This document shows, one piece after another, positions 16,251 through 32,000 of a stretch of 32,000 bases of DNA. The DNA comes from Thermus filiformis. Lineage in GTDB: Bacteria > Deinococcota > Deinococci > Deinococcales > Thermaceae. Location: assembly GCF_000771745.2 (NCBI RefSeq), contig NZ_JPSL02000038.1, forward strand, positions 100,024-132,023, read 5' to 3'. How positions within the stretch are numbered: the stretch's first letter is position 1; each line of letters starts with the position of its first letter. The position numbers and the translations under genes are program-made. Under the pieces are notes generated by a model that worked only from the letters and a program-made list of their open reading frames with translations, ran no database searches and was not told the DNA's origin.

Positions 16251-16411
16251 ACCTGTTGAGCCAGAGGCCCAGGCATACCGCAGACCGGGCAACGCTTAGG
16301 AGCGCCAGAGGAAGCGGGACCAGTCCCAGCCCTCTTCAGGGGAAGCCTCTCCCTCACCTTCCAGAGGAGGAGGGCCAGGAGGAGGAGGAGAAGGAGGAGA
16401 GTCCAGCCCAT
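16163..16411 (-). CDS. small ORF with Leu-rich TM helix and Cys-rich tail; possibly the displaced C-terminus of Zot
   Basis: Sequence is MGWTLLLLLLLLALLLWKV.. then CPVCG..HCPH..CPY. It overlaps the zot 3' end by 116 nt in another frame and may run into the IS110 left end. Confidence 0.3.
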   Translation of the reverse strand: MGWTLLLLLLLLALLLWKVRERLPLKRAGTGPASSGAPKRCPVCGMPGPLAQQVAESKRHCPHVAWGRCPYDPRRGVYRLRR

Positions 16412-17279
16412 GCCCAGAGTCTACCGCCTCTTGCACCGAAGCAAACTTAGCCCGCAGGAGTTCATGAGGGGGAATCCCTTCCCGGTAGGCACGGGCAAGC
16501 TCAGGGAGGGTGAGGTAAGGAAGGCCGTCCAGAGGACCGGGAGCGTCCCGCCGAGCGGTGAGGCGGGAGGAGTCCCAGCGAAGACCCATGCGCTCAAAGA
16601 CCGCCCGGCGTTTAGGGTCCAGTTCTCTCTGGAGGCGGACTATAGGCGGTTCAAAAATGGCGTGCGTATCGTAGCAGGAAGCCGCCAGGGGGTCCAGGAT
16701 AACGACGGAGTTACGGGCCACGCCCTCAAAGATTGAGGAAGTTCTTTTCACCATCATTCCAAGACTTTCGTCCATTATGGAAGTGTAGCGGAGAACCTTC
16801 CGACCCCGAGCCCAGGGGAGGAGGAAGAGGACGAGCCAGGAAGGGGCAGGACGCGCCCAGTAGACGAAGGCCACCAGCTCACGCACGATAGCATCAACCG
16901 AGCCGTACCTTTGCGTAGCTAGGTAGACATCAACCCCGACCTTTCTATGTTGCGACCAGAAGGCGATAACCTCAACCGGGATAAGGTCAAACTGACGGGA
17001 GGGGAGCCACATATGGGCTTCATCAAAAAGCAGAACGCCGTCATGAACATTGAGGAGTTCGGAATAATCGTGGATTTCGTGAATCATATCGGTACGGAGG
17101 ACCGCCTCACGATGAGGAAGGCGCTTACGAGAACGCAAGTAGCGGTAGACATTCTCCCGGATGAAGCCGAAGTTTGCGTAGACCGGACGGGGACGGGGAA
17201 GGGCCAGAGCCTCAAGGCCCTTGAGGACCAGGGCGTAACTCTTACCCGACCCAGGAATGCCCACAAAAGCCTCAATCAC
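16296..17279 (-). CDS. zot: Zot/pI-like phage assembly P-loop ATPase
   Basis: The GTG at 17279 overlaps the upstream TGA (GTGA) and gives MIEAFVGIPGSGKSY (Walker A). Walker B is VLLFDEAHMW, followed by HRKVGVDVYLATQ. The C-terminal tail is poly-Pro. Confidence 0.8.
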   Translation of the reverse strand: MIEAFVGIPGSGKSYALVLKGLEALALPRPRPVYANFGFIRENVYRYLRSRKRLPHREAVLRTDMIHEIHDYSELLNVHDGVLLFDEAHMWLPSRQFDLIPVEVIAFWSQHRKVGVDVYLATQRYGSVDAIVRELVAFVYWARPAPSWLVLFLLPWARGRKVLRYTSIMDESLGMMVKRTSSIFEGVARNSVVILDPLAASCYDTHAIFEPPIVRLQRELDPKRRAVFERMGLRWDSSRLTARRDAPGPLDGLPYLTLPELARAYREGIPPHELLRAKFASVQEAVDSGHGLDSPPSPPPPGPPPLEGEGEASPEEGWDWSRFLWRS

Positions 17280-17710
17280 CGGCCACCCCGCAGGAAAGTG
17301 ATAAGCCGCCAAACGGCCATGAGGCCGTAGAAGCCGAGCCAGAGTTGAAAGGCCAAGAGCGCCTCGGAAATGGGCAGTATCTGATTCGCAAGGGAAAGGG
17401 CGGGGATAATCACGGAACCGCTCACAAGGTTAGTCCAGGAGGCGGGCATATCAGGGAGGAGGGAAACCAGGACGGAAAGGACAATGAAGGGGAGTTCTAC
17501 GATATGGCCCAGGAGCCAGAAGATAGCGACAAAGGCCCAGTTGAGGACATCAACAAGGCGATTCCACAGCCAAACCAGGGGGAGTTCAACGAGCCGAAGA
17601 ACCCACTCAGCAATGGCGCGGATAGTGGCAACGAGCCACGCGGCGAGATTCGCAAAGGTAGAGGCCAGCCATTGAAGGATATTGAGGAGCCCGCTTATTA
17701 TCGCACCCAT
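17276..17710 (-). CDS. phage multi-pass membrane protein, pVI-like by position (144 aa)
   Basis: About four hydrophobic helices. It lies directly upstream of zot and is translationally coupled to it. Confidence 0.6.
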   Translation of the reverse strand: MGAIISGLLNILQWLASTFANLAAWLVATIRAIAEWVLRLVELPLVWLWNRLVDVLNWAFVAIFWLLGHIVELPFIVLSVLVSLLPDMPASWTNLVSGSVIIPALSLANQILPISEALLAFQLWLGFYGLMAVWRLITFLRGGR

Positions 17711-17756
17711 AGCACCACCCCCTTAGTCTTCCCGCGCCCACCCCGCAACCTAGGGT

Positions 17757-17909
17757 AGGGGGGGCGGCACCCCGTCAAGGGCCGGAGGCCCCTCCGCCGC
17801 CCCCACACGCTGAAACCATCCGCAGTCCTCGCAGGGCTCCGGTTAGCGGACGGCAGGGATGGGGGCGGCTCCGGGGTTAGCACCCTTGACGGGGACCCCG
17901 CCGCCCCCC
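17757..17909. repeat. Pair of inverted GC-rich stem-loops in the phage intergenic region
   Basis: In arm 1, GGGGCGGC (17761-17768) pairs with GCCGCCCC (17796-17803). In arm 2, GGGGGCGGC (17861-17869) pairs with GCCGCCCCC (17900-17908). The arms are inverted copies of each other: CCCCGTCAAGGG near 17770 and CCCTTGACGGGG near 17883. Confidence 0.7.
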
Positions 17910-17959
17910 CTGGAGGAAGAGGCGAGGGTGGGCGCGGGGAAAATGGCGCGGGAAAGGAT

Positions 17960-19015
17960 TCACGAAACGACATCTAAGGCCCTCCTAATGGCGGTTATGC
18001 CGAAGACCACCCAGAAAAGGGCGGCGAGAATGGGGCGGAAGGTAGTACCGAGTTGCCAGAAGGGGGTATCGCAAATGTTGACCTGCCCCTGGACCGGGCC
18101 GACCGGGAAGGTGAAGGAGCATTGAGCAGAGTCCCCGGTAAACTGGACCCCGGTCATTATCGTAACGATAGCAAAGGGGAACTTGCGCGAAATGGTATCC
18201 CGAAGGTTGCGAATGCGCTGTTGAACCCGCTCTACGACTTGAGTTTGGAAGGTATTCCAAAGGCCCTCTTTCTCCTCAACTTTGGGCAACTCCTTAGCCT
18301 CGGGCACCTGGACCTCGGGCAACTGCACCGGGTCAAGTTTGCCGGGAGGAGGACCACCGGGCCATTGGGGTTCGTCCTTCTGTTCTTCCTGTTGAGGGGG
18401 TTCACCCTCGGGGTGAGAGTTAGGGTCTTTGGGGTCAGTACCCGCTGAAATCTCGGTGGAGTCAGGCCAGCCGTCCCCGTCCGAGTCGGGAGAAGAAGGA
18501 GAAGGCGGACGGACCGGATGAGATTTAGAGTCGTAGGGGTCAGTACCAGCCGTCAACTCCTCAAGGTTCGTGAAGCCGTCCCCGTCAGGGTCAGCGTAAG
18601 GGTCAGGGTGATTAGCCGGAACATTGATAAGGTCCACCCAGTCACGCCCAGAATAGTTTGCCTCTTTCCATTCTATAGAATCAGGCCAGCCGTCCCCGTC
18701 AGTATCCACATCAGGGCGAGTAAAGGGGTTGTCGGTCCATTGATTAGGGTTAGGGGTAGGTATCAACTCCACACCGGGCCAGGGAGAACGAGGAGAAGCA
18801 GGGGGGTGATTCTTCACATACTCCTCTGCCGCAGTACGGACGGGGGAAATAGCATCAGGGTGAGCCTCCAGCCAGTCTTTCAACTCGGGACGCTGAACAA
18901 TAGGAGCCCGAGCGTAGCAAGAGCGGTCAACAGGGCATTGAGGATAAGGAACCTGCCCCCAAGGATAAGAGCGATATTCGGGGTCAACATACCGCATGTA
19001 ATCCAGAACATACAT
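17960..19015 (-). CDS. pIII-like minor coat/adsorption protein candidate with thrombospondin-type-3-like Ca-binding repeats and C-terminal anchor
   Basis: Motifs DTDGDGWPD, DPDGDGFTNLEELTAGTDPYDSKSHP and DSDGDGWPDSTEISAGTDPKDPNSHP. There is a Pro/Glu linker and a C-terminal TM segment FRPILAALFWVVFGITAI. No signal peptide is present. Confidence 0.55.
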   Translation of the reverse strand: MYVLDYMRYVDPEYRSYPWGQVPYPQCPVDRSCYARAPIVQRPELKDWLEAHPDAISPVRTAAEEYVKNHPPASPRSPWPGVELIPTPNPNQWTDNPFTRPDVDTDGDGWPDSIEWKEANYSGRDWVDLINVPANHPDPYADPDGDGFTNLEELTAGTDPYDSKSHPVRPPSPSSPDSDGDGWPDSTEISAGTDPKDPNSHPEGEPPQQEEQKDEPQWPGGPPPGKLDPVQLPEVQVPEAKELPKVEEKEGLWNTFQTQVVERVQQRIRNLRDTISRKFPFAIVTIMTGVQFTGDSAQCSFTFPVGPVQGQVNICDTPFWQLGTTFRPILAALFWVVFGITAIRRALDVVS

Positions 19016-19035: not shown

Positions 19036-19554
19036 CTAAGTGCTCTCCCCCAAGATTTTCAACTCCACACCCCCTAGGGCCCTGAGGGCCTGGACCACCG
19101 CCTCCTTGAGCTCCTCAAGGCTCTCGTAGTGCCGCCGGGGCATCAGAAACCCCTTCACCCGCCGCCAGACGTTCTCCATGGGGTTCCGATGGGGGCTGTA
19201 CCGGGGCAGGTACCCCACCGCAAGCCCCCTCTCCCGCCACGCCCCCTTCCTGGCCTCCACCTCCTTGGACCGGTGGAACGGTGCGTTGTCCATGAATACC
19301 TTCAGAGGCTTGGTCAGAGCCTCAGAGACCCTGTCCAAATAGGCCCGCACCCCCTCCGACCGCACCGGCCCCTCCAAAACGGCAAAGTACAGCCGCTCCC
19401 CCTCCTTCCCCCGCACCAGATGCCCCACCACGTTCACCCGACCCAAAGAACCCCAGGCCCGGGGCACCGCCTTTGCCTCCCCTCTCCGACACCAGGCATA
19501 GGTGGGGGGAAGGGCCAGGGAAAACCCGCTCTCATCCAAGTACCCCACCTCCAT
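19036..19554 (-). CDS. IS630 family transposase, DDE catalytic part (orfB)
   Basis: Sequence includes MEVGYLDESGFSL..., VFMDNAPFHRS and YSPHRNPMENVW. The ATG overlaps the orfA stop (TGATG). The frame stays open upstream past an A4G5 slippery run. Confidence 0.8.
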   Translation of the reverse strand: MEVGYLDESGFSLALPPTYAWCRRGEAKAVPRAWGSLGRVNVVGHLVRGKEGERLYFAVLEGPVRSEGVRAYLDRVSEALTKPLKVFMDNAPFHRSKEVEARKGAWRERGLAVGYLPRYSPHRNPMENVWRRVKGFLMPRRHYESLEELKEAVVQALRALGGVELKILGEST

Positions 19555-20096
19555 CACCCCTTCCCGCGCCCCCTTTTGGCTTCCTCTTCCTCCTCTATAA
19601 AGGCCTGAACCTCCTCCGCGCTGGGCTTCCCTACGGGCACGTACCGCGTCCGCTTCCAGACGTACCCCATGGCCCTGAGGTGCCGGGAGATGACCTTGGG
19701 GGCCAGGCAGCCCCCAAACCGCTCCGCTATGGCCTGCGCCAGCTGAGGGGCGGTCCAGACCCGGTCCTCGGCCAGCCTCTCCCGCACAAAGGCCGCTATC
19801 TCCGGGGTGAATTTCCTGGGTGCTCCCGGGGGTTTCCGGTAGACGAGGCCCTTTGGGCCGGACCTTAGGAAGCGCTTTAGAACGTGATAGACGGTGGTGC
19901 GGTCCTTGTGGAAGTGCCGGGCGATCTGGGGGGCGGCCCAGCCTTCGCCCGCCAGGCGGACCATCATGGCCCAAAGGCGGGTCTTCTTGTGGACATGCGG
20001 GTTCAGGGAGAGCTCCAGCAGAAGCCGGTCCTCCTCCGGGGTCAGCTGAATCCGAAGAGGGGCTGCCATGTTGAGATGATAAAGGGTTGGCACTTA
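19037..20096 (-). mobile_element. IS630-family insertion sequence flanked by TA
   Basis: TA at 19037-19038 and 20095-20096. The imperfect terminal inverted repeats are AGTGCTCTCCCCC (left) and AGTGCCAACCC (reverse complement of the right end). It encodes HTH and DDE ORFs. Confidence 0.8.
19554..20069 (-). CDS. IS630 family transposase, N-terminal HTH part (orfA)
   Basis: Helix-turn-helix regions WAAPQIARHFHKDRTTVYHVLKRF and WTAPQLAQAIAERFG. Typical IS630 N-terminus. Confidence 0.8.
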   Translation of the reverse strand: MAAPLRIQLTPEEDRLLLELSLNPHVHKKTRLWAMMVRLAGEGWAAPQIARHFHKDRTTVYHVLKRFLRSGPKGLVYRKPPGAPRKFTPEIAAFVRERLAEDRVWTAPQLAQAIAERFGGCLAPKVISRHLRAMGYVWKRTRYVPVGKPSAEEVQAFIEEEEEAKRGRGKG

Positions 20097-20102
20097 GACG
20101 AC

Positions 20103-21137
20103 GTGCTCAGGCCCATCCACGGGGGGCCGGACGGGGGCCCGGAGCCCCTTTGGGACTTTTCCACCAACGCCAACGCCCTGGGGCCGAACCCCGTCCTCCT
20201 GGAACACCTCCGGCGGGTGGACCCCTCCCGCTACCCGGACCCCCTCTACCGGAGGCTGCGGGAGGCCCTGGCCGAGGCCCACGGGGTGCGGCCGGAGCAG
20301 GTGGCGGTGGGCACGGGGACGAGCGAGCTCATCCACCGGCTGGCCCGCTGGAGCTACCTGCGGGGGCCCTGGCTCCTCCTCCCCCCCACCTTCTCCGAGT
20401 ACGCCCGGGCGGCCCGGGCCCTGGACCTCCCCCTCTGGGAGGCGCGAAGCCCCGGGGAGTTTTTGGACCTCCTCCCCAGAAGCGCGGTGGCCTTCCTGTG
20501 CGTGCCCAACAACCCCACGGGGGAGGTCTACCCCTTCCTGGAGAAGGCGGTGAGGCGGGCGGGGGGAGTCTTGGTGCTGGACCTGGCCTACCACGACCTC
20601 CTGGAGTCCCCCGTCCCTCTTCCTGAGGGGGCCTTCCGGCTCTACAGCCCCAACAAGGCCCACGGCCTCACCGGGGTGCGCGCGGGGTACCTGGTGGCCC
20701 CGCTGGACCTCACCTACTTCCAGAACCTGGCCCCCTCCTGGCCGGTTTCCGCCTACGGGGAGGCCCTCCTCCTGGGCCAGCTGGACCCGGAGGCCCGCTC
20801 TTGGCTCGAGGCCAGCCGGCGCGAGCTCATCCGCCTGAGGGGGCTTTTGGCCGAGGGGCTAAGGGGGCTCGGCCTGGAGGTGCGGGAAAGCCCCGCCAAC
20901 TTCCTCCTGGTGCGGGTGGGGCGGGCCTCGGAGGTGGCCCGGGCCCTGCGGGCGCGGGGCATCCGGGTGCGGGACGCCACCAGCTTTGGCCTTCCCGAGT
21001 GGCTCCGCCTTTCCGCCCAGAAGGAGGAGGCCATAAGGGCCCTCCTCGCCGCCCTCGAGGAGGTCCTTGTAGACTTGGAGCGTGGAGCTCATGGCCTACC
21101 TGGAGGAGGCGGCGCGGCGGCTACGGGAGGCCTTTGA
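20103..21137 (+). CDS. cobD: threonine-phosphate decarboxylase / class I-II aminotransferase fold (CobD-like)
   Basis: Sequence includes (M)LRPIHGGPD.., NPNNPTG-like VPNNPTGEV and the PLP lysine motif YSPNKAHGLTG. It lies next to cobQ/cobU. A GTG at 20103 is my assumed start. The annotated longer ORF upstream is antisense IS630 sequence. Confidence 0.7.
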   Translation: MLRPIHGGPDGGPEPLWDFSTNANALGPNPVLLEHLRRVDPSRYPDPLYRRLREALAEAHGVRPEQVAVGTGTSELIHRLARWSYLRGPWLLLPPTFSEYARAARALDLPLWEARSPGEFLDLLPRSAVAFLCVPNNPTGEVYPFLEKAVRRAGGVLVLDLAYHDLLESPVPLPEGAFRLYSPNKAHGLTGVRAGYLVAPLDLTYFQNLAPSWPVSAYGEALLLGQLDPEARSWLEASRRELIRLRGLLAEGLRGLGLEVRESPANFLLVRVGRASEVARALRARGIRVRDATSFGLPEWLRLSAQKEEAIRALLAALEEVLVDLERGAHGLPGGGGAAATGGL

Positions 21138-21405
21138 CCTCGAGGCCCTCTACCTCTTCGGCTCCCACGCCCGGGGCACGGCCGGCCCCCGCTCGGACCT
21201 GGACCTCCTGGTGGTGGCGAGGACCTCCTTGCCCCCCCTGGAGCGCATCGGCCGGGTCCTGGAGCTTTTGGCCGACGCCCCCCTCCCCGTGGAGGCCATC
21301 GTCCTCACCCCCGAGGAGCTTAGGGAGCGCCGGGACCTCCCCTTCCTCCAGGGGGTTCTCCGGGAGGCGAAGCCCATCTATGAGCGTGGAGAAACGCCGG
21401 CTTGA
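21082..21405 (+). CDS. MNT-type nucleotidyltransferase (antitoxin of HEPN/MNT pair)
   Basis: GSHARGTAGPRSDLDLLVV matches the GSxxRGx(n)SDxDL motif. The start is either GTG at 21082 or ATG at 21091. It overlaps the cobD 3' end. Confidence 0.8.
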   Translation: MELMAYLEEAARRLREAFDLEALYLFGSHARGTAGPRSDLDLLVVARTSLPPLERIGRVLELLADAPLPVEAIVLTPEELRERRDLPFLQGVLREAKPIYERGETPA

Positions 21406-21793
21406 GGCCCTGCGCTGGCTCGCCCAAGCCCAGGACGACTGGGAGGCGGGCCAGGCCCTGCTGGAAGCGGGCAAGTACGCCCAGGCAGCCTTTCTCGCCC
21501 AGCAGGCGGGGGAAAAGGCGCTAAAAGGCCTCTGGATCGCCCTGGGCCTAGACCCATGGGGGCACAGCCTGGCCCGCCTCCTCCGGGACCTCCCCCCGGA
21601 GGAGGCCCCCTTTTTCCATCCCCTTTTGCCCCAGGCCCTGGCCTTGGACAAGCTCTATATCCCCACCCGCTACCCCGATGCCCTCCCTGGGCTCACTCCC
21701 AAGGAGGCCTACACGGAGGCGGAGGGCAGGAAGGCCTTGGAGGATGCCCGGGCCATCCTGGAAGCCGTGGAGGTGCGCCTTGCCCAGGGCTAA
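21380..21793 (+). CDS. HEPN domain protein (toxin of HEPN/MNT pair)
   Basis: 137 aa with A..L..A..D and YIPTRYPDA motifs. It overlaps the MNT gene by 26 nt. Confidence 0.8.
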   Translation: MSVEKRRLEALRWLAQAQDDWEAGQALLEAGKYAQAAFLAQQAGEKALKGLWIALGLDPWGHSLARLLRDLPPEEAPFFHPLLPQALALDKLYIPTRYPDALPGLTPKEAYTEAEGRKALEDARAILEAVEVRLAQG

Positions 21794-23699
21794 GGCCCTC
21801 ATCGTCTGGGGCACGGGAAGCGGGGTGGGGAAAAGCCTCCTCGTGGCGGGGCTTCTTCGCCACTTCCGCAGGCTCGGCCTGAGGGCCGCCCCCTTCAAGG
21901 CCCAGAACATGTCCAACCACGCCCGGGTGGTCCCGGGGGGGGAGATCGCCTCCGCCCAGTGGCTCCAGGCCCTGGCCGCCGGGGTGGAGCCCGAGGTGCG
22001 GATGAACCCCGTCCTGGTGAAGCCCTTCGGGGAAAGGGGCGCCCAGGTGGTGGTGTGGGGGAAGGTGGACCCCGCCCTCTCCCGGCTTCCCTGGAAGGAG
22101 CGCAAGCCCCACCTCGAGGCCCCCATCCGGGAGGCCCTGGAAGGTCTTTTGGCCGAGTACGAGCTTTTGGTCCTCGAGGGGGCGGGAAGCCCGGTGGAGC
22201 GGAACCTCTGGCCCGACCTCCCGAACCTGAAGGTGGCGGAGTGGGCCGATGCTAAGGCCCTCCTGGTGGCGGACGTGGACCAGGGGGGGGCTTTGGGGGC
22301 GCTCTACGGCACCTGGGCCCTTTTGGGGGAGCACCGGGGAAGGCTTATCGGCTTCGCCTTCAACAAGTTCCGGGGGGACCTGGAGCTTTTGAAGCCCGCC
22401 TACCGCCTCCTGGAAGACTGGACGGGCATCCCGGTCCTCGGAACCCTCCCCCTTCTTCCCCTGGAGCTCCCCGAGGAGGACGGGTTCCGCCACCGCCCCC
22501 GGGCGGCGGAAGGCCCCAAGGTGGCCCTCCTCCGCTACCCCCACGCCTCCAACCTGGACGAGTTCTGGCCCCTCTCCGAGCTCGCCCGCCCCGTGTACGC
22601 CACCACCCCCGAGGAGGCGGAAGGGGCGGAGCTCCTCGTCCTCCCGGGAAGCCGCTTCCCGGCCCGTGACCTCCCCTGGCTCAAGGCTTTCCTCCCCCTG
22701 ATCCAAAGGCACCTGGAGGCGGAAAAGCCCGTCCTCGCCGTCTGCGGCGGGGCGGAGATGCTCGCGGAGGCCATTTGGGACGAGGAGGGAGTGGAGGAAA
22801 AGGGGGTCTTCCCCGGCCTCGGCCTCCTTCCCTACCGGGTGCGCCTGGAGCGGGAGAAGCGGGTGGCGAAAACGGGGGCGCGCCTGGAAGGGCTTTCGGG
22901 GTACTGGGCGCGGCTAAATGGCCTCGAGGTCCAGGGGTACGAGATCCACCACGGCCGGGGCCTCCCCCTCTTCCACCAGGAAGGAAGCCTCCTCGCCACC
23001 TGGATGCACGGCCTCCTGGAAAACCCCCATGTGCAGCGGGCCCTCTTCGGCAAAGAGGCGCGGGGCCTGGAGGAGGCCCTGGAGGCCCTCGCGGACGCCC
23101 TCGAGGCCCACCTGGACCTGGGGGCGGTCCACCGGGCTTTGGGGCTTAAGGCCGCCCCCAAGGGCGGGGCCTCGGGGAGCGCGAGGGGGCTCGAGGCCCC
23201 TCCCCCCGGCCTCGTCCTCCTCCTGGGGGGAGCCAAAAGCGGCAAGAGCCGCCACGCCCAGCGCCTGGCCGGGCCCTTCGCCACCCTCATCGCCACCGCT
23301 GAGGCCCGGGACGAGGAGATGGCGGAGAGGATCCGCCGCCACAAGGAGGAGCGCCCCCCCACCTGGGAGACCCTGGAGGAGCCCCTGGACCTGGCGCGGG
23401 CCCTGGAGGAGGCCCGCCACCCCACGGTGGTGGTGGACTGCCTCACCCTCTGGGTGGCCAACCTGCTGGAGCGGGGGCTGGACCCTTTGGAGGAGACGGA
23501 GCGCTTCTTGGAGGCGGTGAAAAGGAGCGGCAAGCGGGTCATCGCCGTCTCCAACGAGGTGGGGATGGGGATCGTCCCCCCAAACCCCCTGGCCCGGCGC
23601 TACCGGGACCTCCTGGGCCAGGTGAACGCCCGCCTGGCCGAGGCGGCCCGGGAGGCTTACCTTTTGGTGGCGGGGCGGGCCCTTCCCCTAAAGGGCTAG
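21780..23699 (+). CDS. cobQ: cobyric acid synthase CobQ fused to adenosylcobinamide kinase/guanylyltransferase CobU
   Basis: CobQ part: GTGSGVGKS, the GATase motif VLAVCGG..ML, and YEIHHG. CobU part starts near 23209 with LLLGGAKSGKS and DCLTLWV. There is no stop between them. The start is uncertain (TTG 21780 or ATG 21744). Confidence 0.75.
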   Translation: MPRAKALIVWGTGSGVGKSLLVAGLLRHFRRLGLRAAPFKAQNMSNHARVVPGGEIASAQWLQALAAGVEPEVRMNPVLVKPFGERGAQVVVWGKVDPALSRLPWKERKPHLEAPIREALEGLLAEYELLVLEGAGSPVERNLWPDLPNLKVAEWADAKALLVADVDQGGALGALYGTWALLGEHRGRLIGFAFNKFRGDLELLKPAYRLLEDWTGIPVLGTLPLLPLELPEEDGFRHRPRAAEGPKVALLRYPHASNLDEFWPLSELARPVYATTPEEAEGAELLVLPGSRFPARDLPWLKAFLPLIQRHLEAEKPVLAVCGGAEMLAEAIWDEEGVEEKGVFPGLGLLPYRVRLEREKRVAKTGARLEGLSGYWARLNGLEVQGYEIHHGRGLPLFHQEGSLLATWMHGLLENPHVQRALFGKEARGLEEALEALADALEAHLDLGAVHRALGLKAAPKGGASGSARGLEAPPPGLVLLLGGAKSGKSRHAQRLAGPFATLIATAEARDEEMAERIRRHKEERPPTWETLEEPLDLARALEEARHPTVVVDCLTLWVANLLERGLDPLEETERFLEAVKRSGKRVIAVSNEVGMGIVPPNPLARRYRDLLGQVNARLAEAAREAYLLVAGRALPLKG

Positions 23700-23705
23700 A
23701 GGGTG

Positions 23706-23812
23706 AAGTTTGTTATATCGCCCTCGAGGCCCCCTCGCCATCTTTGCCTATCCTAAGGGAAAAGGGCACTTGTTATCCAGGGGCCGGGGGTGGGGCGAAA
23801 ATAACAAAGTTT
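23706..23812. repeat. Imperfect inverted repeat in low-GC spacer between cob operon and helicase gene
   Basis: AAGTTTGTTATATCGCCC (23706-23723) faces GGGCGAAAATAACAAAGTTT (23793-23812). A third TTGTTAT lies at about 23770. Confidence 0.4.
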
Positions 23813-23908
23813 GAGTGGAGGCTCTCCAGAATGCCTGGAACCCTGGCCACGCGAACGCCCGCCGGGAAGGGCTTACGGCCACCACGGGAGGGTTTGTAAT
23901 GCCCTCCT

Positions 23909-26900
23909 TCACCCCCCGCAGGCGAAGAGGTCCCGGTGGGCCTCCAAAAGGCCGGGCCAGGCCGCCTCGTCCCAGGGGACGACCACCACCCGGTAGCCCA
24001 GGTCCAGAAGCTCCTCCCGCTGGAGCTCGTCTATCTTCCGCTGCCGCTTTTCCTCGTGGTGGGGGCCGTCCACGTAGACCGCCACGTTGGGGCGGTAGAA
24101 GAAGTCGGCGATGGTGTGGGCCTGGGGGATGCGGTACTGGGCCTCGTCGGGCAGGCGGCAGCCCCGCTCGTGGAGGAAGAGGAGGAAGCGGCGCTCCAGG
24201 CCGGAGGCGCAGGCGGAAAGGAGCTCCTCCAGGCGCTCCTTCCCTCCGGGTTCTTCCGAAGCGGCCTCGAGGCGTGCCCCAAGCAGGGCCTCCAGGTAGG
24301 GCCGGGCCCGGTGGCGGTCCAGGTAGACGGCCTCCAGCTGGTTGCTGTAGGAGAGGAGGCACTCGTAGCAGGCCCGCTCGCACTCGGGCTTCAGGTCCTC
24401 GCCTCCCTCGCCGAAGTGGAGGACCCTCAGGGCTGAGGCCGCCACCTCCTTGAGGAGGTCCGGGTCCTCCAGAAGCCGCCTCAGGACCCCGAGCCCCCCC
24501 TCGGCGGCCTCGAGGTAGACGAAGGCCAGGTGCTCCCCCCGGCCCAAAAAGGCCAGGTCCAGCTCCGACTCCTCCACCTGGAAGAAGGCCTCCATCCCCC
24601 GCTTCAGAGCGTAGGCCAAGGAGTAGACCGCCTCCTCCCCCGCCTCCACCACCCGGGGGCCCGGGTAGAGGAAGAGGGCGTTCTGGGTGAGGTGGACGTA
24701 GAGGCGGTAGCGGCCCACCTTGGCCCCCGAAAGGGGGTCTTTGGCCTCCCGGTCCTCGCCCCACTCCCGCAGGAACTCCCCCGTGGCCAGGTCCACCATG
24801 AACCCCGGGGCCTTTCCCCGGCGCAGGCCGTGGTTGATCAGGTAGAAGCGGGCGGAGGGCAGGTACTCCATCCGGAACCCCCCCAGGCCCTCCGCCTCCC
24901 CCACGGCCTGGAGGCGGCGCTCCTCTGGGACGCCCTCGAGGTCGTAGCCCAGCTCCAAAAGGTACCCGCCCCGGAGGCGCTCCTCCTCGTTGGCGGTGAT
25001 GCGGTCGCGGCGGCGCAGGGCCACGTTGCCGAACTCCAGGAGGAGGAGGCGTTCGGCGTTTGCCCCCTCAAACAGGGCCCCGCACCCCGGGCAGCGGGAG
25101 GCCTCCTCCGGGGCCACGCGGCCGCAGGCCCGGCAGAGCCACCGGGAGGCCACCCGGGCCTCCAGCCCCCCCGGGACCTGCAGGAAGCGGGCGGGGGCCC
25201 ACTTCGCCCCCTCGTGGTAGAGGAGGCTTCCGGGGGCCATCTCCCGCAGGGCCAGGGGGCGGGGGCGCTGGATGTACTCCCCGTCCCCCCGGGGCACCCA
25301 GGCGGTGATGGGGAGGGTGGGGAAGCCGTAGCCGGGGAGGAAGCCCTCGGTGGCCAGGTACCGGTAGGGGTAGAAGTCCCCCTCCTCCTTGGCCACCCCG
25401 GTCTGCCGCAGGAGGTCCAGCTGGCGCTCCGCCTCCTTCCGCCGCCGCTCTATCTCCTGGCGCTCCTGGGCGTTCGCCACTTTGACCCGGGCCCGGGAGG
25501 CCCGCTCGTACTCCTCCCAGGCCGCCCGGAAGAGCTCCCGCCAGCGGTCAAAGGCCCGGTCAAAGGCCTGGGGGGCCTCCTCCACCACCTCCCTTAGCCA
25601 CGCCTCGCCGAAGCCCTGCCCCTCCAGCTCCTCCCAGTCGGGGGCCAGGGCCCGGCGCACCCGCTCCAGGAGGGCCCGCTTGGCCTCCTCGGAAAGGTGG
25701 AGGCTTCGGCGCACCTCCTCGTAGAGGGGAAGCTCCGGGTAGCGGTCCTCGTCCAGGACGCTGGTGACGCTCTGGTGGAGGGAAAGCCCCGTGGCGGAGA
25801 GCCACTCCGCCTGGACGTGGGCCCGCAAAAGGGCCTCGTTGGTCAGGTCCAGGCTGGGGGCCCGCACCGCCCCGGCCACCATCTCCTGGCGGTTATGGAA
25901 GAAGTAGCGGTCGTGGTGGTTGAAGGCCCCGGCGAAGCTCACCACCAGCCCCGCCTGGCCCTGCCGCCCCGCCCGGCCCGAGCGCTGGGCGTAGTTGGCC
26001 GGGGTGGGGGGGATGTTGCGCAGGTGGACCATGTCCAAATCGGCGATGTCCACCCCCAGCTCGAGGGTGGGCGAGGCCACCAGGAAGGGGAGCCGCCGCT
26101 CGTCCTTCAGCTGGGACCGGTCCTCCTCCGAGAAGCGGAAGCGCCGCTCCCGCCGCTCCCGCTCCCCGGGGGCCACCACCTGGGCGGTGTGCTCCCGGGC
26201 CTCGAGGCCCAGAAGCTCCCCGGGCGGCGTCCCGTAGAGCTGGACGAAGAAGGGGTTGGCGTTTTCCGCCGCCTCCCCCAGGGTCCAGAGGAGGGCGGAC
26301 TCGGGGATGCGGTACCCCTCCCCCTGCCGCAGGAGGAGGCCGAAGCCCTGGAGGACCTCCAGGAAGACGGGGTAGTCCTCCGGGGTGAGGCCGAGCTCCT
26401 TGAGGAGGCGGCCCAGGGCGCTCCTGGGGGTGAGGGGGAGGAGGTTCTCCTCCCGGGCCTGCGCCTCCGGCAGGACCAAGAGGGCGGGGCGGAGGGGGGC
26501 GTCCTCCTCCCCCAGGGCCCAGAACTCGCTCAGGTGCTCCTGGCTCCGCTTCTTGAGCTTTTTGAAGGCCTCCTCCTGCAGGATGGGGGCGGCCACCACC
26601 AACCGCTTGCGGAGCCGGTCCAAAAAAGCCCTCACCCCCTCGCGAAGCCGCTCGTCCGAAAGGCCCTTTAGGGCGGGAAGGGCCCGGCGCAGGTCCTCCA
26701 GGAGGCGGGGGTTTTCCAGGTCCCGGTAGGCCAGGCGGAGGAGGCCCAGGTCCTCCAGGTTGGGCTGGGTGAAGCGCCACTCGTGCCTAAGGTCCTCGTA
26801 GAGGCGGAAGAGAAGGAGCTCCTGCATGGCCTCCCGGGCCTCTTGGGCCGCCCGGGTCCCCGGCTTGAGCAGGGGGTTTCGGGCGTAGTGGGAAGGGTCC

Positions 26901-28861
26901 AGGCCCGAGGCCTCCAGGACCGCCCCCGCCAGGTCCAAGGCCGAAAGCACCCGGTGCGCCCTCAGGGCCTGGTAAAGGGCCGAGCGCACCAAGGCGGTCT
27001 GGACGAAGTCGTTGAAGTGGCCCGCCTGCAAGGAGGCGTCCTGCCGGTTGTCGGTGAAGGAGAGGAGCTTGTCCCTCCCCTCGCCCAGGCGCTCCCGGGC
27101 CTCCTTGAGGAGGTTGAGGGCCAAGGCGGTGGTGGCCGAGGTGCGGCCCTCGCTGCCCAGGTAGGTGAGCTTGCGGAACTCCCCCACCCGCCGGTCGTAG
27201 TGCTCCCCGCAGCGGACGCAGAGGGCAAAGGGGGCCTCCTGAAGGTAGAAGGGGGCCGCCCCGGGGGCGGGCCCGGCCTCGAGGCGGCCCTGGGGGTCGG
27301 CGTAGACCAGGCGGGGGGCCCGGTCCCTCCAGGTTTTGCGGAGGTTCCCCCCCTCGTCGTACCAGGCCTCGGGGAGGTCCAGGTCCCCCTCGGCGTGGGC
27401 CAGGTAGACCTCCCTCCCCGCGCCCGCCTCGAGCCCCTCCGGGTAGGGCAGGAGGGTGCCCTCTTCGGTGAGGAGGGCGTGGTAGTAGTCCTGGCCGCAG
27501 TTTCGGCAGAAGCGCAAGGGGAAGAAGGGCCGCTTCTGCCTCAGGACGTTCTCCGAGGAGAAGTCCCGCACCGCTGGGTCTTCCAGGGTGGCGTAGACGG
27601 GCCGGGTCTGGGAGACGAACTGGTGAAGCTTGAAGGCGAAGACGGGCCTGCCCCCCTCGCCCTCGAGGCGGGAGAGGCGGTCTATGGCCTCCTCGAGCCG
27701 CTTCCGGGCCTCTTGGGGAAGGAGGCCTGTGCGCTCGGCCAAAAGGCGGGCGGCCTCCTCCAAGGTCCTCGGGGTGCGGCGGCGGTAGGCCCCGGGGGCC
27801 TCCTCCTCCAGGCCCAGCTCCCACTCCAAAAAGCGGGCCAAGGGGTGGCGCCGCCACTCGGAAAGGCTTTCCGGAAAAGGCGCCCATAGGGCGCGGCGAA
27901 GCTCCTCCTCGTCCGGGGGGCCCCCTTCCGTGACCGGGGAGAGGACCTCCTCCACCACGTCCTCCTCGGAGATGGGGTGGCCGAAGAAGCGGCTCGCGAA
28001 CCGGGCCACCGCCTGCCGCCTCTCCTCCCGGGTCGCCCGCTTGCCCGCCACCAGGGTGGCGCTCGTCCCCACGTGGACCACGGGCCGCCCCTCGGGGAGG
28101 CGGGCGCGGAAGCGGCGCACCAGGAGGGCCACGTCCGCCCCTTGGCGGCCCCGGTAGGTGTGGAGCTCGTCAAAGACCAGGAAGAAGGGCTCCGTGCTGT
28201 TGGGCGGGGAGACCAGGTCCCGGTCCTCCGGGCGGACCATCAGGTACTCCAGCATCACGTAGTTGGTGAGGAGGAGGTGGGGCGGGTCCTTTTGGATTTC
28301 GCGGCGGTCGTCCTCGCCCGTCTCCCCGGTGTAGCGGGCGAAGCGGAGGGGGAAGGGCCGCTTTTCCCGGCTCTCGTAGGCCGCCTTCAGCTCCTCCAGG
28401 GCCTTGAGCTGGGAGTTCACCAGGGCGTTCATGGGGTAGACCACCACGGCCAAAGGCCCCCTCAGGTCGGGGCGGCGGGCGGCCAGGTCCAGGATGGGGA
28501 TGAAGTAGGCGAAGCTCTTCCCCGAGCCGGTGCCCGAGGTGAGGACGAAGCTCCTCCCCTCCCGGGCCCTGCGGATGGCCTCCACCTGGTGGCGGAAAAG
28601 GCGGTAGGGCGCCCCGTCCCGGCGGCGGAAGACCCGGGCGGTGGTGGGGTGGAGGAGGCCCTCTTGGGCCAGGGCGTCCACGTCCGGCCCCAGGGCGTAG
28701 CCTGGGGAGAGCTGAAGGAAGGGCTCGGGCCAGAGCTCCTTGTCCTCCCGCAGGTACTTCCGCACGAAGCCCTCGAGCCGGGGGTCGGCCACCCGGACGA
28801 AGGACTCTATGAAGTCCCGGTAGCGCTCCAGGGCCTTTTGGTGAACCTCAAAGATGGACAT
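23909..28861 (-). CDS. 1650-aa SF2 DExH helicase with DUF1998/MrfA-type Zn modules and C-terminal Vsr/DUF559-like endonuclease
   Basis: Helicase motifs: TSGTGSGKS (28514-28540), DELH (28160-28171), SFTDNRQDAS and QRSGRAGRQG. Also GFLPGYGFP, the Cys clusters CRNCG/CVRCG and CRACG..CPGCG, and ECERACYECLLSYSNQ. The C-terminus reads ADFFY..VAVYVDGPHH..R..ELLDLGYRVVVV. An AGGAGG RBS precedes the ATG. Confidence 0.9.
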   Translation of the reverse strand: MSIFEVHQKALERYRDFIESFVRVADPRLEGFVRKYLREDKELWPEPFLQLSPGYALGPDVDALAQEGLLHPTTARVFRRRDGAPYRLFRHQVEAIRRAREGRSFVLTSGTGSGKSFAYFIPILDLAARRPDLRGPLAVVVYPMNALVNSQLKALEELKAAYESREKRPFPLRFARYTGETGEDDRREIQKDPPHLLLTNYVMLEYLMVRPEDRDLVSPPNSTEPFFLVFDELHTYRGRQGADVALLVRRFRARLPEGRPVVHVGTSATLVAGKRATREERRQAVARFASRFFGHPISEEDVVEEVLSPVTEGGPPDEEELRRALWAPFPESLSEWRRHPLARFLEWELGLEEEAPGAYRRRTPRTLEEAARLLAERTGLLPQEARKRLEEAIDRLSRLEGEGGRPVFAFKLHQFVSQTRPVYATLEDPAVRDFSSENVLRQKRPFFPLRFCRNCGQDYYHALLTEEGTLLPYPEGLEAGAGREVYLAHAEGDLDLPEAWYDEGGNLRKTWRDRAPRLVYADPQGRLEAGPAPGAAPFYLQEAPFALCVRCGEHYDRRVGEFRKLTYLGSEGRTSATTALALNLLKEARERLGEGRDKLLSFTDNRQDASLQAGHFNDFVQTALVRSALYQALRAHRVLSALDLAGAVLEASGLDPSHYARNPLLKPGTRAAQEAREAMQELLLFRLYEDLRHEWRFTQPNLEDLGLLRLAYRDLENPRLLEDLRRALPALKGLSDERLREGVRAFLDRLRKRLVVAAPILQEEAFKKLKKRSQEHLSEFWALGEEDAPLRPALLVLPEAQAREENLLPLTPRSALGRLLKELGLTPEDYPVFLEVLQGFGLLLRQGEGYRIPESALLWTLGEAAENANPFFVQLYGTPPGELLGLEAREHTAQVVAPGERERRERRFRFSEEDRSQLKDERRLPFLVASPTLELGVDIADLDMVHLRNIPPTPANYAQRSGRAGRQGQAGLVVSFAGAFNHHDRYFFHNRQEMVAGAVRAPSLDLTNEALLRAHVQAEWLSATGLSLHQSVTSVLDEDRYPELPLYEEVRRSLHLSEEAKRALLERVRRALAPDWEELEGQGFGEAWLREVVEEAPQAFDRAFDRWRELFRAAWEEYERASRARVKVANAQERQEIERRRKEAERQLDLLRQTGVAKEEGDFYPYRYLATEGFLPGYGFPTLPITAWVPRGDGEYIQRPRPLALREMAPGSLLYHEGAKWAPARFLQVPGGLEARVASRWLCRACGRVAPEEASRCPGCGALFEGANAERLLLLEFGNVALRRRDRITANEEERLRGGYLLELGYDLEGVPEERRLQAVGEAEGLGGFRMEYLPSARFYLINHGLRRGKAPGFMVDLATGEFLREWGEDREAKDPLSGAKVGRYRLYVHLTQNALFLYPGPRVVEAGEEAVYSLAYALKRGMEAFFQVEESELDLAFLGRGEHLAFVYLEAAEGGLGVLRRLLEDPDLLKEVAASALRVLHFGEGGEDLKPECERACYECLLSYSNQLEAVYLDRHRARPYLEALLGARLEAASEEPGGKERLEELLSACASGLERRFLLFLHERGCRLPDEAQYRIPQAHTIADFFYRPNVAVYVDGPHHEEKRQRKIDELQREELLDLGYRVVVVPWDEAAWPGLLEAHRDLFACGG

Positions 28862-28875
28862 ACGCCTCCTTTAGC

Positions 28876-31800
28876 TTAGCCTTCGCCAAACCCGGCCTCC
28901 AAAAGCCGCTCCCACGCCTCCAGCACCCATCTTTTGGTCCGGTACTCCCCGTGGCGCTCCTCCTCCTTGCGGCGGGTGATGGGGAACTGGTCCAGGACGT
29001 AGTCTATGGCCTCTTTGGGGGTGGGGAAGAGCTTCCTTAGCTCTGGTGGGGCCTCCCGCGCCCACGCCTCGGGGGTGCCCAGGTAGAGGAGGAAGTAAAG
29101 GGCGTCCAGCTCGGCCCGCAGGCGGGCACGCCGCCCGGGGTCGTAGCGGAAGGGGGGGAAGGGGTAGGGGGCCTTGAGCCAGGGCGGGGGCTCGTCCCGG
29201 TGGCCGCCGTTTCCCGAAAGCTGGGCCAGAATGGCCTCCCGCAAAGGTCCCTCTGCCTCGTTCCAAACGTCCTGGGCGAAGGGAGCCAGGTCCCAGGCGG
29301 TGTAGACCAGCTCGAGCACCCGGGGCACCACGAAACGCAGGTGCTCCGGGCCGTAGGCCGAGGGGGGGAGGACGGGAAGCTGTTTGGTCACGTGGTACTT
29401 GAGGTGGGTCCCGCCGATTTTCTGACGGACCGTGTAGTCAAAGGGCAGGGCGTTGAGGTTGGCGAGAAGGACCGAGACGAGGGGGGTCGGAGCGCTGGGA
29501 AACATCTGGAGGAAGGTGTCCCCGGCTCCCACCCTGGGGTAGACGGAAGCAATGAAGGTGCGCTCATCGGTAGACCGAGCGATGTCCCGCCAACCCATGT
29601 TCCACCCCCGGTCCCAGCGCCAGACCACCTTTACCGTGCGGTCCCGCCGTTCCAGCCGCCCCTCCACCTCCTTTTCGGCCACCCAGTACCGGGGCAGGAC
29701 CAGGAAGCGGGGGTCGGCCTTCTCGGCCTCGGTCACGTCCCGGGTGTCGCTCCCCGCGTAGGTGGCCCAGCGGTGGTCAAACTGGTGGATGAGCTTGGCC
29801 TCGTAAAGGGGCAGGTACCGCTCGTCCTTCCCCACGAAGGCGTTCCCCTCCAGGCGGAGGCCCTGGGCCTCGAGGTCCTGGAGGGTGTGGAAGAGGTGGG
29901 AGGCGCTGGTCATGTTGAAAAGCCCCTGCATGAACTCCACCCCCCACGGGTTCCCGGCTTCTCCCCTACCCTCATCCACCAGCACGGGCACCCGCCGGTA
30001 GACGTACTTGGTCAGCTCCGCGTCCCGCCGGGTGCGGAAGACGGGGGCGGTGCGGGTGTTGGGGTTGAGGAGGCGGAAGTCCTCCGGGGTGAGGGAGAAG
30101 AGGCGCTCGGGGTCGGACAGGTCGTCCACGCTGTGGCAGAAGAAGGCGAACCGGGCGGGCTCGCTCGCGGAGCCCTCGGGCTTGCGCAGGGCGAGGACGC
30201 AGAACTTCATGCGGCTGTCCACCGCCGGGAAGAGCTTCTGCCGGTTCTCAAAGTCGTACAAGGCCGCAAGCTCCCCCCGCCCCGCCACCTCGGCGAAGAA
30301 GAACTTGTTGGTGTCGTCGGTGGCAATGCCCGTGGGCACCACCACCCCCGCCCGGCCCCCTTGACGGGTGAGGGTGCGGGCCAGCTCGGAGAAGAGCGGG
30401 TACAGGTTGATTTTCCCCCTCGCGCTCAGAGGGAAGCGGCCCGACTCCCGAACGAAGGCGTTGAAGCCCCTCAAGTCCCGAACGTACTCCAACCACTCCT
30501 CGTAAAGCCGAGGGTTGCGCTGGGGTAGCTCCTGGATGAGCCTCTTCCGCCGGGCACCGCTAGCCTGGGCGATCTCGGGGTCTTTCTGGGCGAAGAACTC
30601 CTCCTCCCCTGCCTGGACCACCTCCCAAGGCGGGTTGCCCAGGACCACGTCAAACCACCCCTGGGCGAAGACCTCGGGGAACTCCAGCCACCAATGGAAG
30701 AAGCCCACCTTTTGGGCAAGGTCGGTGGCCAGGGCCTCGAGCCTCGGGTCCACCCGGCCCTCGAGGGCGTCCCAGACCGCCCCGGTGGTGATGAAGGGGC
30801 CCTCGCCCCGCAGGGGCTGGAAGAAGGCCGCCGTCCAGAGGTCCGCCGCCAGGCGCATTTTCTGCCACATGTCGCTCTTCTTCAGGGCCTCGTAGCGCCG
30901 GGCCTTTTCCGCCACCCCCTCCGGGGTGTCCTCGCTCAGGCGGGCGATCTCCTCCATCTCGCGCCGGAAGGCCTCGAGGGCCTTTCGGAAGTCCTCCTCC
31001 CCGAAGCCCCCGAAGAGGTACCGGTCGCCCCCCCGCTCCCTCTGGTTCTGCTTCTTGACGGCCCTCGCCACCCCCTTGTCGTCCCCCTCCTTGGGCTCAA
31101 AAGCCTCGTCCGGTATGCCCCGGAGGAGGTCCTCATAGGAGAAGGTCCCCACCAGGCTGTCCCCGTGGCGCACCCGGTGGTCCAGGAAGCCCAGGGGCTT
31201 GCCCTGGAGCTGGCTTTCCATCCACAGGCCCACCCGGCAAAGCTCCGCCGCCAGGGGGTTCTTGTCCACCGCGTAGAGGCAGTGGGCCACCACCTCCCGC
31301 ACCGCCTTTCGCAGGGCCTGGGGGTCGGGCTCCTCCTCCCCCGTGCGCACCTGGGCCAGGCGCTTCCCGAGCCGCCGGGCCGCCCCCAGGAGGAAGTGCC
31401 CCGAGCCCGCCGCCGGGTCCACCACCTTTAGGGAAAGGAGGGCCCGCTCCCGCTCCTCCTGGGAGGCCGCCCCCCTTAGGCGCTCCTCCACCACCGGGTC
31501 CAGGGCCTCCTTCAGGACCAGCTCCACCAGCTCATGGGGGGTGTAGTAGCTCCCGGTCTGCTTCCGCTCCGTCCCCCCGGCGAAGGCGAACTCCGGCCCC
31601 TCCGCCCCCGGCAGGACCACGGGGCGGTGGTCCAGAAGGCTCTCGTAGACCGAGCCCAGCTCCTCCACGTCCAAGGCGGCGTAGTTCACCCGCTGGAGCC
31701 CCCCCGCCTCCCGGTCGTGGTAGTAGACCAGGTGGCGAAAGCCCAAGAGGAGGTGGCGGTTGTCCACGGCGTAGGGCTCCTCCTCCAGGGCCAGGGGCTC

Positions 31801-32000
31801 AAAGAGGCGGCCGTTGAGCACGTGGAGGCCCAGGGCGCTCGCCAGGGGCCGGTCCCCCAGCTCGGGCACGGGGTGGGCGTCCCGCAGGAGGTGGAAGAGG
31901 GCCTTCAGGCCCAGCCAGAGGTCCCGGTCCTCCGTGTACGCTTCGGGGTCGTCCACCAGGCGGGCCAGGCGCTCGAGGCCGTACCCCTCCCGGTAGACCT
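28876..32000 (-). CDS. large gamma-class N6-adenine DNA methyltransferase (Eco57I/PglX/type IIG-like), 5' end outside window
   Basis: GSYYTP, motif [13 protein letters not shown] (31390-31425) and motif IV NPPW (30625-30636). The frame remains open upstream of the GTG at 31956 to the window edge. A C-terminal region of about 580 aa could be a target-recognition domain. Confidence 0.88.

Follow-up and report, generated by a model that had tools for sequence, protein, structure and literature searches.

ARMADA was named by Bell et al. in 2025 (PMC12458937; bioRxiv 10.1101/2025.09.15.676423) for systems combining a YprA-like helicase, a BrxHII/RapA-like helicase and a PglX-like methyltransferase, and was presented, from an analysis of the YprA helicase family, as the 'missing link' between DISARM and Druantia. 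The present study concerns a locus of Thermus filiformis with similar components, in which two minus-strand genes, for a DNA methyltransferase and a helicase fused to a nuclease, occupy positions 23909-32000 of a 32,000-nucleotide (nt) stretch with a GC content of about 70%; this whole stretch is hereafter called the window.

ARMADA helicases are described as having fused OB-CON-DUF1998 domains, a BrxA-like insertion and a beta-barrel zinc module containing two or more CxxC motifs, the last two being hallmarks of the ARMADA/Druantia lineage (PMC12458937). The OB-fold region contains one zinc insertion in type I and two in type II and Druantia, and the C-terminal Vsr nuclease of type I is predicted to be active (PMC12458937). 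The helicase gene usually comes first in type I loci, with a reversed order reported for many archaea and cyanobacteria, while type II loci have the order SNF2-methyltransferase-helicase and include ArmD, a GajB-like helicase with a RelE-like domain (PMC12458937). In Escherichia coli, type II ARMADA blocks many phages with no membrane permeabilisation or metabolic shutdown, and its defence needs all genes, the Walker motifs of ArmA and ArmC, and the NPPW motif of ArmB, being abolished by N971A, a mutation of the equivalent of the NPPW asparagine (PMC12458937). Deletion mutants of armB have been obtained and have lost defence (PMC13463889). Non-abortive anti-phage activity has been demonstrated for type II alone among ARMADA systems. 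Regarding the neighbouring systems, DruE of Druantia is a 3'-to-5' DNA helicase acting at junctions of single-stranded and duplex DNA, and DrmAB of DISARM is cited as recognising double-stranded DNA with a 5' overhang.

The region is read here, with a probability of about 0.85, as the downstream two-thirds of an anti-phage operon of ARMADA type I, which would have three genes in the 'reversed', ArmA-ArmB-ArmC-like order. An earlier, sequence-only reading of the window had described the two genes as a compact and unclassified defence module resembling DISARM and Druantia. Its proposal of a defence-type operon of a methyltransferase and a helicase-nuclease is borne out, as is the intermediate nature of the parts, since the helicase matches the DruE models of PADLOC best and the methyltransferase the DrmMI model. 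The label 'unclassified' has to be dropped, because this architecture has already been named ARMADA type I and a full-length orthologue of the helicase (SFM99360.1, 51% identity) is an entry of Table S1 of Bell et al. (PMC12458937), and the module comprises three genes rather than two, the gene of an SNF2 helicase lying very probably just outside the window. Assignment of the pair to a system that already has a name, an outcome that the sequence-only reading had given as a ground for its own refutation, is thus what the comparison points to, and ARMADA systems are already called by DefenseFinder (PMC13463889).

The operon in the window

The two genes and their junction are as follows:
28876-32000, minus strand: ArmB-like (PglX/DrmMI-like) gamma-class N6-adenine DNA methyltransferase, the C-terminal 1040 of 1330-1346 residues, with the 5' end cut by the window edge
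28862-28875, minus strand: intergenic junction of 14 nt, with an AGGAGG ribosome-binding site at 28865-28870 (direct sequence reading)
23909-28861, minus strand: ArmC-like YprA-family DExH helicase with a fused Vsr-type nuclease, 1650 amino acids from an ATG start (the coordinates take in the stop codon)

The close spacing of the genes noted earlier was confirmed by direct reading: on the minus strand the TAA stop codon of the methyltransferase gene (28878-28876) is followed by AGGAGG (28870-28865) and by the ATG of the helicase gene (28861-28859). The methyltransferase frame runs on from 28876 to the edge of the window through 1040 codons with zero stops; the window thus cuts off the 5' end of the gene, which is not complete, as the list of open reading frames (ORFs) had implied, and about 290-306 of its residues fall beyond nt 32000. 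Database searches returned thousands of full-length homologues of each protein, so both genes are real, and a chance origin of their ORFs from the 70% GC content can be set aside.

No ArmD gene follows the helicase gene; the next gene after its stop codon (23909) is a convergent cobyric acid synthase gene (CobQ+CobU, 21678-23699, plus strand). This absence points to type I with the reversed gene order. A scan for promoters and terminators at the convergent junction (23500-24100) gave no signal over background.

Sequence comparison of the helicase places the locus in the same subtype. Entries listed as 'ARMADA Type I helicase' in Table S1 include SFM99360.1 of Thermodesulforhabdus norvegica and several Thermus proteins (PMC12458937). 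The window helicase is colinear with SFM99360.1 over residues 1-1649, while its identity is 22-27% to type II ArmC and 23-34%, in patches, to DruE III of E. coli (comparison proteins from EDL933). By pairwise identity the helicase thus appears to belong to the type I group and not to type II or Druantia. Assignment to type II was considered and rejected because of the missing ArmD gene and the low ArmC identity.

The fused helicase-nuclease

The helicase is 100% identical to T. filiformis KGQ22834.1/WP_038061151.1. Conservation of its residues was scored over 121 homologues, and the following elements were recognised:
28052-28594, minus strand: RecA1 lobe, residues 90-270 (Pfam DEAD, 1.7e-20)
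28514-28534, minus strand: Walker A motif GTGSGKS, residues 110-116 (motif reading and conservation)
28160-28171, minus strand: DELH motif, residues 231-234 (motif reading and conservation)
27197-27910, minus strand: insertion after RecA1, a helical domain (residues 318-417) and then a beta-rich zinc module (residues 447-555), modelled by AlphaFold with a predicted local distance difference test score (pLDDT) of 81 over residues 285-600
25958-26161, minus strand: core of the RecA2 lobe, residues 901-968 (Pfam Helicase_C, 2.5e-9)
25964-25987, minus strand: motif VI QRSGRAGR, residues 959-966, conserved in homologues
25082-25135, minus strand: four-cysteine stretch CRAC...CPGC, residues 1243-1260, between GFLPGYGFP and the MZB domain
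24356-24619, minus strand: MZB/DUF1998 zinc-binding domain, residues 1415-1502, including CERACYEC (Pfam 28.9 bits against a cut-off of 24.2)
23912-24244, minus strand: C-terminal Vsr/DUF559-like PD-(D/E)xK nuclease domain, with D1586 at 24104-24106 and DGPHH (residues 1598-1602) at 24056-24070

The DExH helicase and the DUF1998/MrfA-type zinc modules recognised earlier in the translation are supported by DEAD, Helicase_C and MZB matches above the Pfam thresholds, all in one ORF, as in the fused YprA helicase-MZB proteins of ARMADA type I; the fusion of helicase, DUF1998 and Vsr-type nuclease in a single protein of 1650 amino acids was likewise confirmed. The RecA1 motifs Walker A and DELH are conserved in 97-100% of the homologues, and every catalytic motif is intact in the window copy.

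In the zinc module that follows RecA1, the CxxC pairs 452/455 and 548/551 are invariant, and in the AlphaFold model the order of a helical and then a beta-rich domain would agree with the BrxA-like insertion and beta-barrel zinc-binding module described for the ARMADA/Druantia lineage. Cysteines 1243/1246 and 1257/1260 are invariant in 121 of 121 homologues, and no further cysteine occurs between residues 551 and 1494. From its position, the CRAC...CPGC stretch is assigned to the OB-fold region, so that at the level of sequence these four cysteines would form one zinc insertion, the number given for type I. In the MZB domain, C1498 and C1501 are invariant and C1494 is present in 101 of the 121 homologues.

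The Vsr/DUF559-type nuclease, which taken by Pfam alone was the weakest of the earlier claims, is backed by a structural model and by near-invariant residues. The last 126 residues of the helicase were modelled confidently by AlphaFold (pLDDT 89.7), and the best Foldseek match of this model in the PDB was the catalytic domain of I-Bth0305I (3r3p; E 0.012, probability 1.00, template modelling score 0.65, target-normalised), followed by a much weaker match to a putative endonuclease-like protein (3hrl; E 0.43, probability 0.54). The 3r3p domain is Vsr-like. At least 117 of the 121 homologues share residues D1586, D1598, G1599, H1602 and D1611, and R1615 is near-invariant. On these modest scores the protein would have a single C-terminal nuclease of Vsr type, predicted to be active, as in type I.

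The methyltransferase

Residues 291-1330 of T. filiformis KGQ22835.2, a protein for which the RefSeq model has 1346 amino acids, match the methyltransferase fragment with 100% identity. Two motifs were read from the translation:
31393-31419, minus strand: motif I (S-adenosylmethionine binding) DPAAGSGHF, N-terminal to NPPW
30625-30636, minus strand: motif IV (catalytic) NPPW

Motif I stands N-terminal to NPPW, which gives the gamma order, and the fragment matches the Pfam families Eco57I (6.6e-15) and N6_Mtase (3.2e-6); the gamma-class N6-adenine methyltransferase proposed earlier is therefore upheld. The operon thus has a PglX-like methyltransferase, encoded on the same strand as the helicase and 14 nt upstream of it, with its motifs intact. 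It is 25% identical to ArmB of E. coli over 599 residues. The T. norvegica orthologue aligns solely with the N-terminal 483 residues of the window fragment. The only Pfam families found in the full-length protein (KGQ22835.2) are Eco57I, N6_Mtase and MmeI_Mtase, and a PDB sequence search with it returned zero matches.

The SNF2 gene and the neighbourhoods of related loci

T. filiformis encodes an SNF2 protein of 924 amino acids (KIX84611.1/WP_045246145.1). A metagenome contig (L023) overlaps window positions 30248-32000 with 92.8% nucleotide identity, and on it an SNF2 gene with 99.4% identity stops 2 nt short of the start of the methyltransferase gene. In all likelihood the operon thus begins with the SNF2 gene just past nt 32000, which would provide the BrxHII/RapA-like component of ARMADA and agrees with the earlier expectation of a partner gene beyond the window. 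An exact 34-nt match to the window end was not found in the metagenome contigs. On the same contig, an OLD-family nuclease gene (L023 7972-9645, minus strand; AAA_15 and OLD-like TOPRIM, 557 amino acids) is divergent from the SNF2 gene, and another defence gene probably lies just outside the window in T. filiformis too.

Full-length homologues of the helicase with about 50% identity occur in many phyla. The neighbourhoods compared include those of T. caliditerrae (L001), Thermodesulforhabdus norvegica (L002), the T. thermophilus plasmid pAA1-1b (L006), Thermomicrobium (L024), a member of Bacteroidia (L025) and a member of Pirellulaceae (L026), with thirteen loci fetched via the methyltransferase. 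An Eco57I/PglX-type methyltransferase gene was found near the helicase gene in 13 of the 14 distinct loci examined (L001, L002, L006, L007, L009, L010, L013, L015, L017, L018, L024, L025 and L026), and ten of these also have an SNF2 helicase of about 920-960 amino acids; in the other three (L018, L024 and L026) the fetched DNA stops inside the methyltransferase gene, before the SNF2 position. The order is SNF2-methyltransferase-helicase in L001, L002, L006, L010, L015, L017 and L025, and helicase-SNF2-methyltransferase in L007, L009 and L013. The sequence-only reading had given homologues that usually lack a methyltransferase and lie in repair (MrfA-like) contexts as another ground for its refutation, and these were not what was seen.

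The single exception is Thermanaerothrix daxensis (L004/L005), in which the contig ends 2.2 kilobases (kb) upstream of the helicase gene. Here (L004 2268-15607) an ARMADA-I-like helicase with 48% identity, with no visible methyltransferase or SNF2 gene, is convergent to a gene set of DruA (PF14236) and DUF87; this locus could be a hybrid, or a Druantia-type system could lie next to it.

Many ARMADA I loci with the reversed order have 1.5-7 kb of variable small ORFs, including toxin-antitoxin-like genes, between the methyltransferase and helicase genes (L001 8519-9745; L010 13999-16990; L018 2299-3855; L024 2130-9001; L025 6327-9001; L026 3292-9001). Some relatives carry a disrupted methyltransferase gene beside an intact helicase-nuclease gene: it is frameshifted in T. 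thermophilus pAA1-1b (L006 10947-14962), and fragmented and C-terminally truncated in the Bacteroidia genome (L025 3686-6327). In a Planctomycetota metagenome-assembled genome (L017 6148-23111) all three ARMADA genes are broken. It therefore seems that, in contrast to classical restriction-modification, the methyltransferase can be lost, with assembly errors possible in these relatives.

Alternative assignments

The assignment to ARMADA type I has several points against it. In the literature searched, no experiment on type I ARMADA, the T. filiformis locus included, was found, and T. filiformis accessions are not among the entries listed in the available part of Table S1 (PMC12458937). The Pfam match of the nuclease domain to DUF559 (E = 0.022) is under the threshold, and the PDB matches of its model by Foldseek have weak E-values, none at or below 0.001. 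A Foldseek search of the PDB with residues 285-600 of the helicase returned no BrxA or other significant match, likely because the two-domain model has a predicted template modelling score of only 0.57. The adjacency of the SNF2 gene in this genome is deduced from the 92.8% identical contig and from the fact that the species encodes the protein.

The models of PADLOC-DB v2 (2023) divide the proteins of the operon among several systems. The methyltransferase matches DrmMI best (5.3e-65), followed by type IIG models (up to 2.2e-56) and PglX (1.1e-11); the SNF2 protein matches DpdE (5e-156), DrmD (3.7e-92) and BrxHII (2.4e-69); and the helicase matches DruE1-4 best (6.8e-84 to 1.6e-53), with DrmA at 1.7e-18. 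The DrmMI and DrmD matches, and a parts list equal to that of DISARM class 1, would suit a variant of that system in which DrmD and DrmMI work with a fused DrmA-DrmB helicase and a Vsr domain replaces the PLD nuclease DrmC. Such a variant is improbable, however: the DrmA match covers RecA2 alone and is far behind that of DruE, the helicase reaches 16.4 bits with the NCBIfam model of DISARM DrmA, whose cut-off is 950, DUF1998 is fused to the helicase with no separate DrmB gene, no PLD domain was found in the helicase or the neighbouring ORFs, and Bell et al. split exactly such an architecture off as ARMADA (PMC12458937).

The helicase itself leads towards Druantia, and a Druantia variant, in which a DruE-type helicase would work with a methyltransferase as in type II Druantia, was considered. 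Besides the DruE models, its best PDB sequence matches are 9tu7 (2e-38) and 9wae (2.9e-26), helicases of about 2000 amino acids, and a DruA gene lies near the relative in Thermanaerothrix daxensis. The two PDB entries are titled only 'DEAD/DEAH box helicase' and 'Helicase', and are presumed from their size to be of DruE type. However, the match to the DruE profile is partial, being made up of three stretches of which the best covers profile positions 10-676 of 2055, and the identity to E. coli DruE III is patchy. No DruH, DruA-D or DruM/F/G gene was found beside the operon in the window or upstream of it in the metagenome contig, and the conserved partners are instead an SNF2 helicase and a PglX-like methyltransferase. 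For the nuclease an active Vsr is predicted, whereas Druantia III has PLD and types I and II have an inactivated Vsr (PMC12458937). A Druantia variant is judged slightly less probable still than a DISARM one.

Another explanation, a type IIG/IIL-like restriction-modification enzyme in which the methyltransferase would itself carry a nuclease and the helicase would be an accessory or have no relation to it, draws on the type IIG matches of PADLOC and on source annotations that call some relatives of the methyltransferase 'Type IIS restriction enzyme Eco57I'. It is very unlikely, as these matches are confined to the methyltransferase core, no nuclease or MmeI N-terminal domain was detected by Pfam in the full-length T. 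filiformis protein, and the gene is coupled to that of the helicase across 14 nt and keeps its synteny with the helicase and SNF2 genes across phyla. Just as unlikely is a DNA-repair helicase of MrfA/YprA type with a methyltransferase gene beside it by coincidence, since the MZB domain, the YprA-family core, the PDB match to MrfA/YprA (6znp, 4.4e-18) and weak NCBIfam matches to repair helicases are set against repair-family scores all far under their cut-offs (nothing in NCBIfam came near any cut-off), the lack of an MrfB exonuclease partner, the methyltransferase linkage kept in 13 of 14 loci with SNF2 seen in ten of those, neighbourhoods that are defence islands with CRISPR-Cas, toxin-antitoxin pairs, OLD nuclease and GmrSD, and the place of the clade in the defence branch of the YprA family according to Bell et al. 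(PMC12458937).

The DpdE match of the SNF2 protein deserves a separate remark. ARMADA SNF2 helicases fit the PADLOC 'DpdE' model (PDLC02853) end to end, at 5e-156 for KIX84611.1 and 3.5e-148 for the T. caliditerrae gene (L001 1575-4355), far better than they fit DrmD or BrxHII. ARMADA-type sequences may have gone into the building of that 2023 model, or the two families may lie very near each other; in older PADLOC runs ARMADA loci could be mislabelled as fragments of Dpd or DISARM.

Possible mechanism of defence

The mechanism proposed for the T. filiformis operon as an ARMADA type I system is drawn entirely from homology. The methyltransferase would recognise a DNA motif through its variable C-terminal half and place N6-methyladenine on host DNA; the role of this half is suggested by the T. 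norvegica orthologue, which can be aligned over the N-terminal 483 residues alone. The SNF2 ATPase would translocate on duplex DNA or remodel it, while the YprA-type helicase would load on invading or replicating phage DNA, at junctions or where it is single-stranded, and move 3'-to-5' like MrfA and DruE. The C-terminal Vsr-like domain would then nick or degrade the phage DNA, and the infection would be cleared directly, with the host not killed.

The methyltransferase would, in addition, be needed for defence itself, as in BREX, and not merely serve as an antidote to the nuclease. It is tentatively suggested that the type I methyltransferase is an obligate targeting or licensing subunit of the helicase-nuclease, in the manner of BREX, rather than a protective antidote, although this role is considered somewhat less probable than its opposite. 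It would be consistent with the relatives in which a disrupted methyltransferase gene stands beside an intact nuclease-helicase gene, in pAA1-1b and the Bacteroidia genome, a combination that argues against a simple restriction-modification logic. It would also be consistent with the E. coli armB deletions and the NPPW point mutant, which could be obtained and in which defence is lost (PMC12458937, PMC13463889). If the licensing role is correct, the intact, thermostable and tightly coupled T. filiformis operon would suit reconstitution of such a complex and a first experimental test of type I.

Other features of the window and significance of the locus

The defence-island-like neighbourhood described earlier is present, with an MNT/HEPN pair, IS110 and IS630-type transposases and an inovirus-like remnant; no tRNA genes were found in the window. 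The remnant is a low-GC (57-62%) inovirus-like morphogenesis module at 16163-19015 on the minus strand, flanked by IS110-family and IS630/DDE_3 transposase genes (15069-16130 and 19036-19974, both minus strand), and looks like what is left of a Thermus filamentous phage. It contains:
16296-17312, minus strand: Zot/pI-like ATPase (phrog_20922, 5.6e-139)
17276-17710, minus strand: small protein with the annotation 'head protein' (phrog_37052, 4.2e-45)
17960-19015, minus strand: TSP3-repeat protein (phrog_36046, 3.4e-109)

An RtcB RNA ligase gene (9628-12261, minus strand; Pfam RtcB 2.7e-171) is interrupted by an intein-like insertion, whose Intein_splicing match (8.7e-7, 29.3 bits) is under the Pfam cut-off of 35.8. 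The tail of a cobalamin operon (19884-23699, plus strand), comprising an aminotransferase gene, the MNT/HEPN pair and CobQ+CobU, has 85% nucleotide identity to T. thermophilus pTT27-type megaplasmids. In these plasmids (L020) genes for alkaline phosphatase, nagA and Argonaute come after the end of the cob operon, where T. filiformis has ARMADA, which indicates a variable defence locus.

The locus establishes no new category, because the insight into an intermediate between DISARM and Druantia is already published as ARMADA. With it, ARMADA type I, a subtype so far named but with no experiment found in the literature searched, gains an intact copy from a thermophile, and the reversed type I gene order is extended to Deinococcota and several other bacterial phyla. 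Thermus proteins often suit structural and biochemical work, and those of this operon could show how the methyltransferase, the SNF2 motor and the helicase-nuclease cooperate.

Comparison with known defence systems

The locus shares with BREX a methyltransferase of the PglX kind and an SNF2 helicase of the BrxHII kind, and differs from it in having no BrxA, BrxB, BrxC, PglZ or BrxL, and a helicase-nuclease effector instead. BREX and ARMADA II, for their part, have in common that the catalytic motif of the methyltransferase is needed for defence and that deletion of the methyltransferase is not lethal.

With DruE of Druantia types I-III, the helicase shares its lineage, the large insertions after RecA1 with conserved CxxC modules and the fused MZB domain. 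Unlike in Druantia, there are no DruH, DruA-D or DruM/F/G partners, their place being taken by the conserved SNF2 helicase and PglX-like methyltransferase, and the Vsr domain is predicted to be active, compared with PLD in type III and an inactivated Vsr in types I and II.

DISARM class 1 (DrmD, DrmMI, DrmA, DrmB and DrmC) has the same kinds of parts, namely SNF2, a large N6-adenine methyltransferase, a YprA-family helicase, DUF1998 and a nuclease. In DISARM, however, helicase and DUF1998 are split into DrmA and DrmB and the nuclease is a separate PLD protein, whereas here all three are fused and the nuclease is of Vsr type, with a helicase core nearer to DruE than to DrmA.

ARMADA type II, as represented by armABCD of E. 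coli NCTC 12900 and EDL933, has the same ArmA-ArmB-ArmC order, and all three proteins are homologous with colinear alignments; identity is 30% between ArmA and the SNF2 protein of T. caliditerrae, while ArmB and ArmC show 25% and 22-27% to their counterparts in the window. The window locus differs in being without a downstream ArmD, in its shorter helicase (1650 amino acids compared with 2113), which has no extra EEP or second Vsr domain, and in its shorter methyltransferase (1330-1346 amino acids compared with 1644).

The differences from ARMADA type I concern the arrangement of the genes: the T. filiformis order is SNF2-methyltransferase-helicase compared with the usual helicase-first order, and the gap between methyltransferase and helicase genes is 14 nt compared with 1.5-7 kb of cargo in many relatives. 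The likenesses to type I concern the components themselves, which are the same three with no fourth gene, the helicase having one four-cysteine module between GFLPGYGFP and MZB and a single C-terminal Vsr domain predicted to be active.

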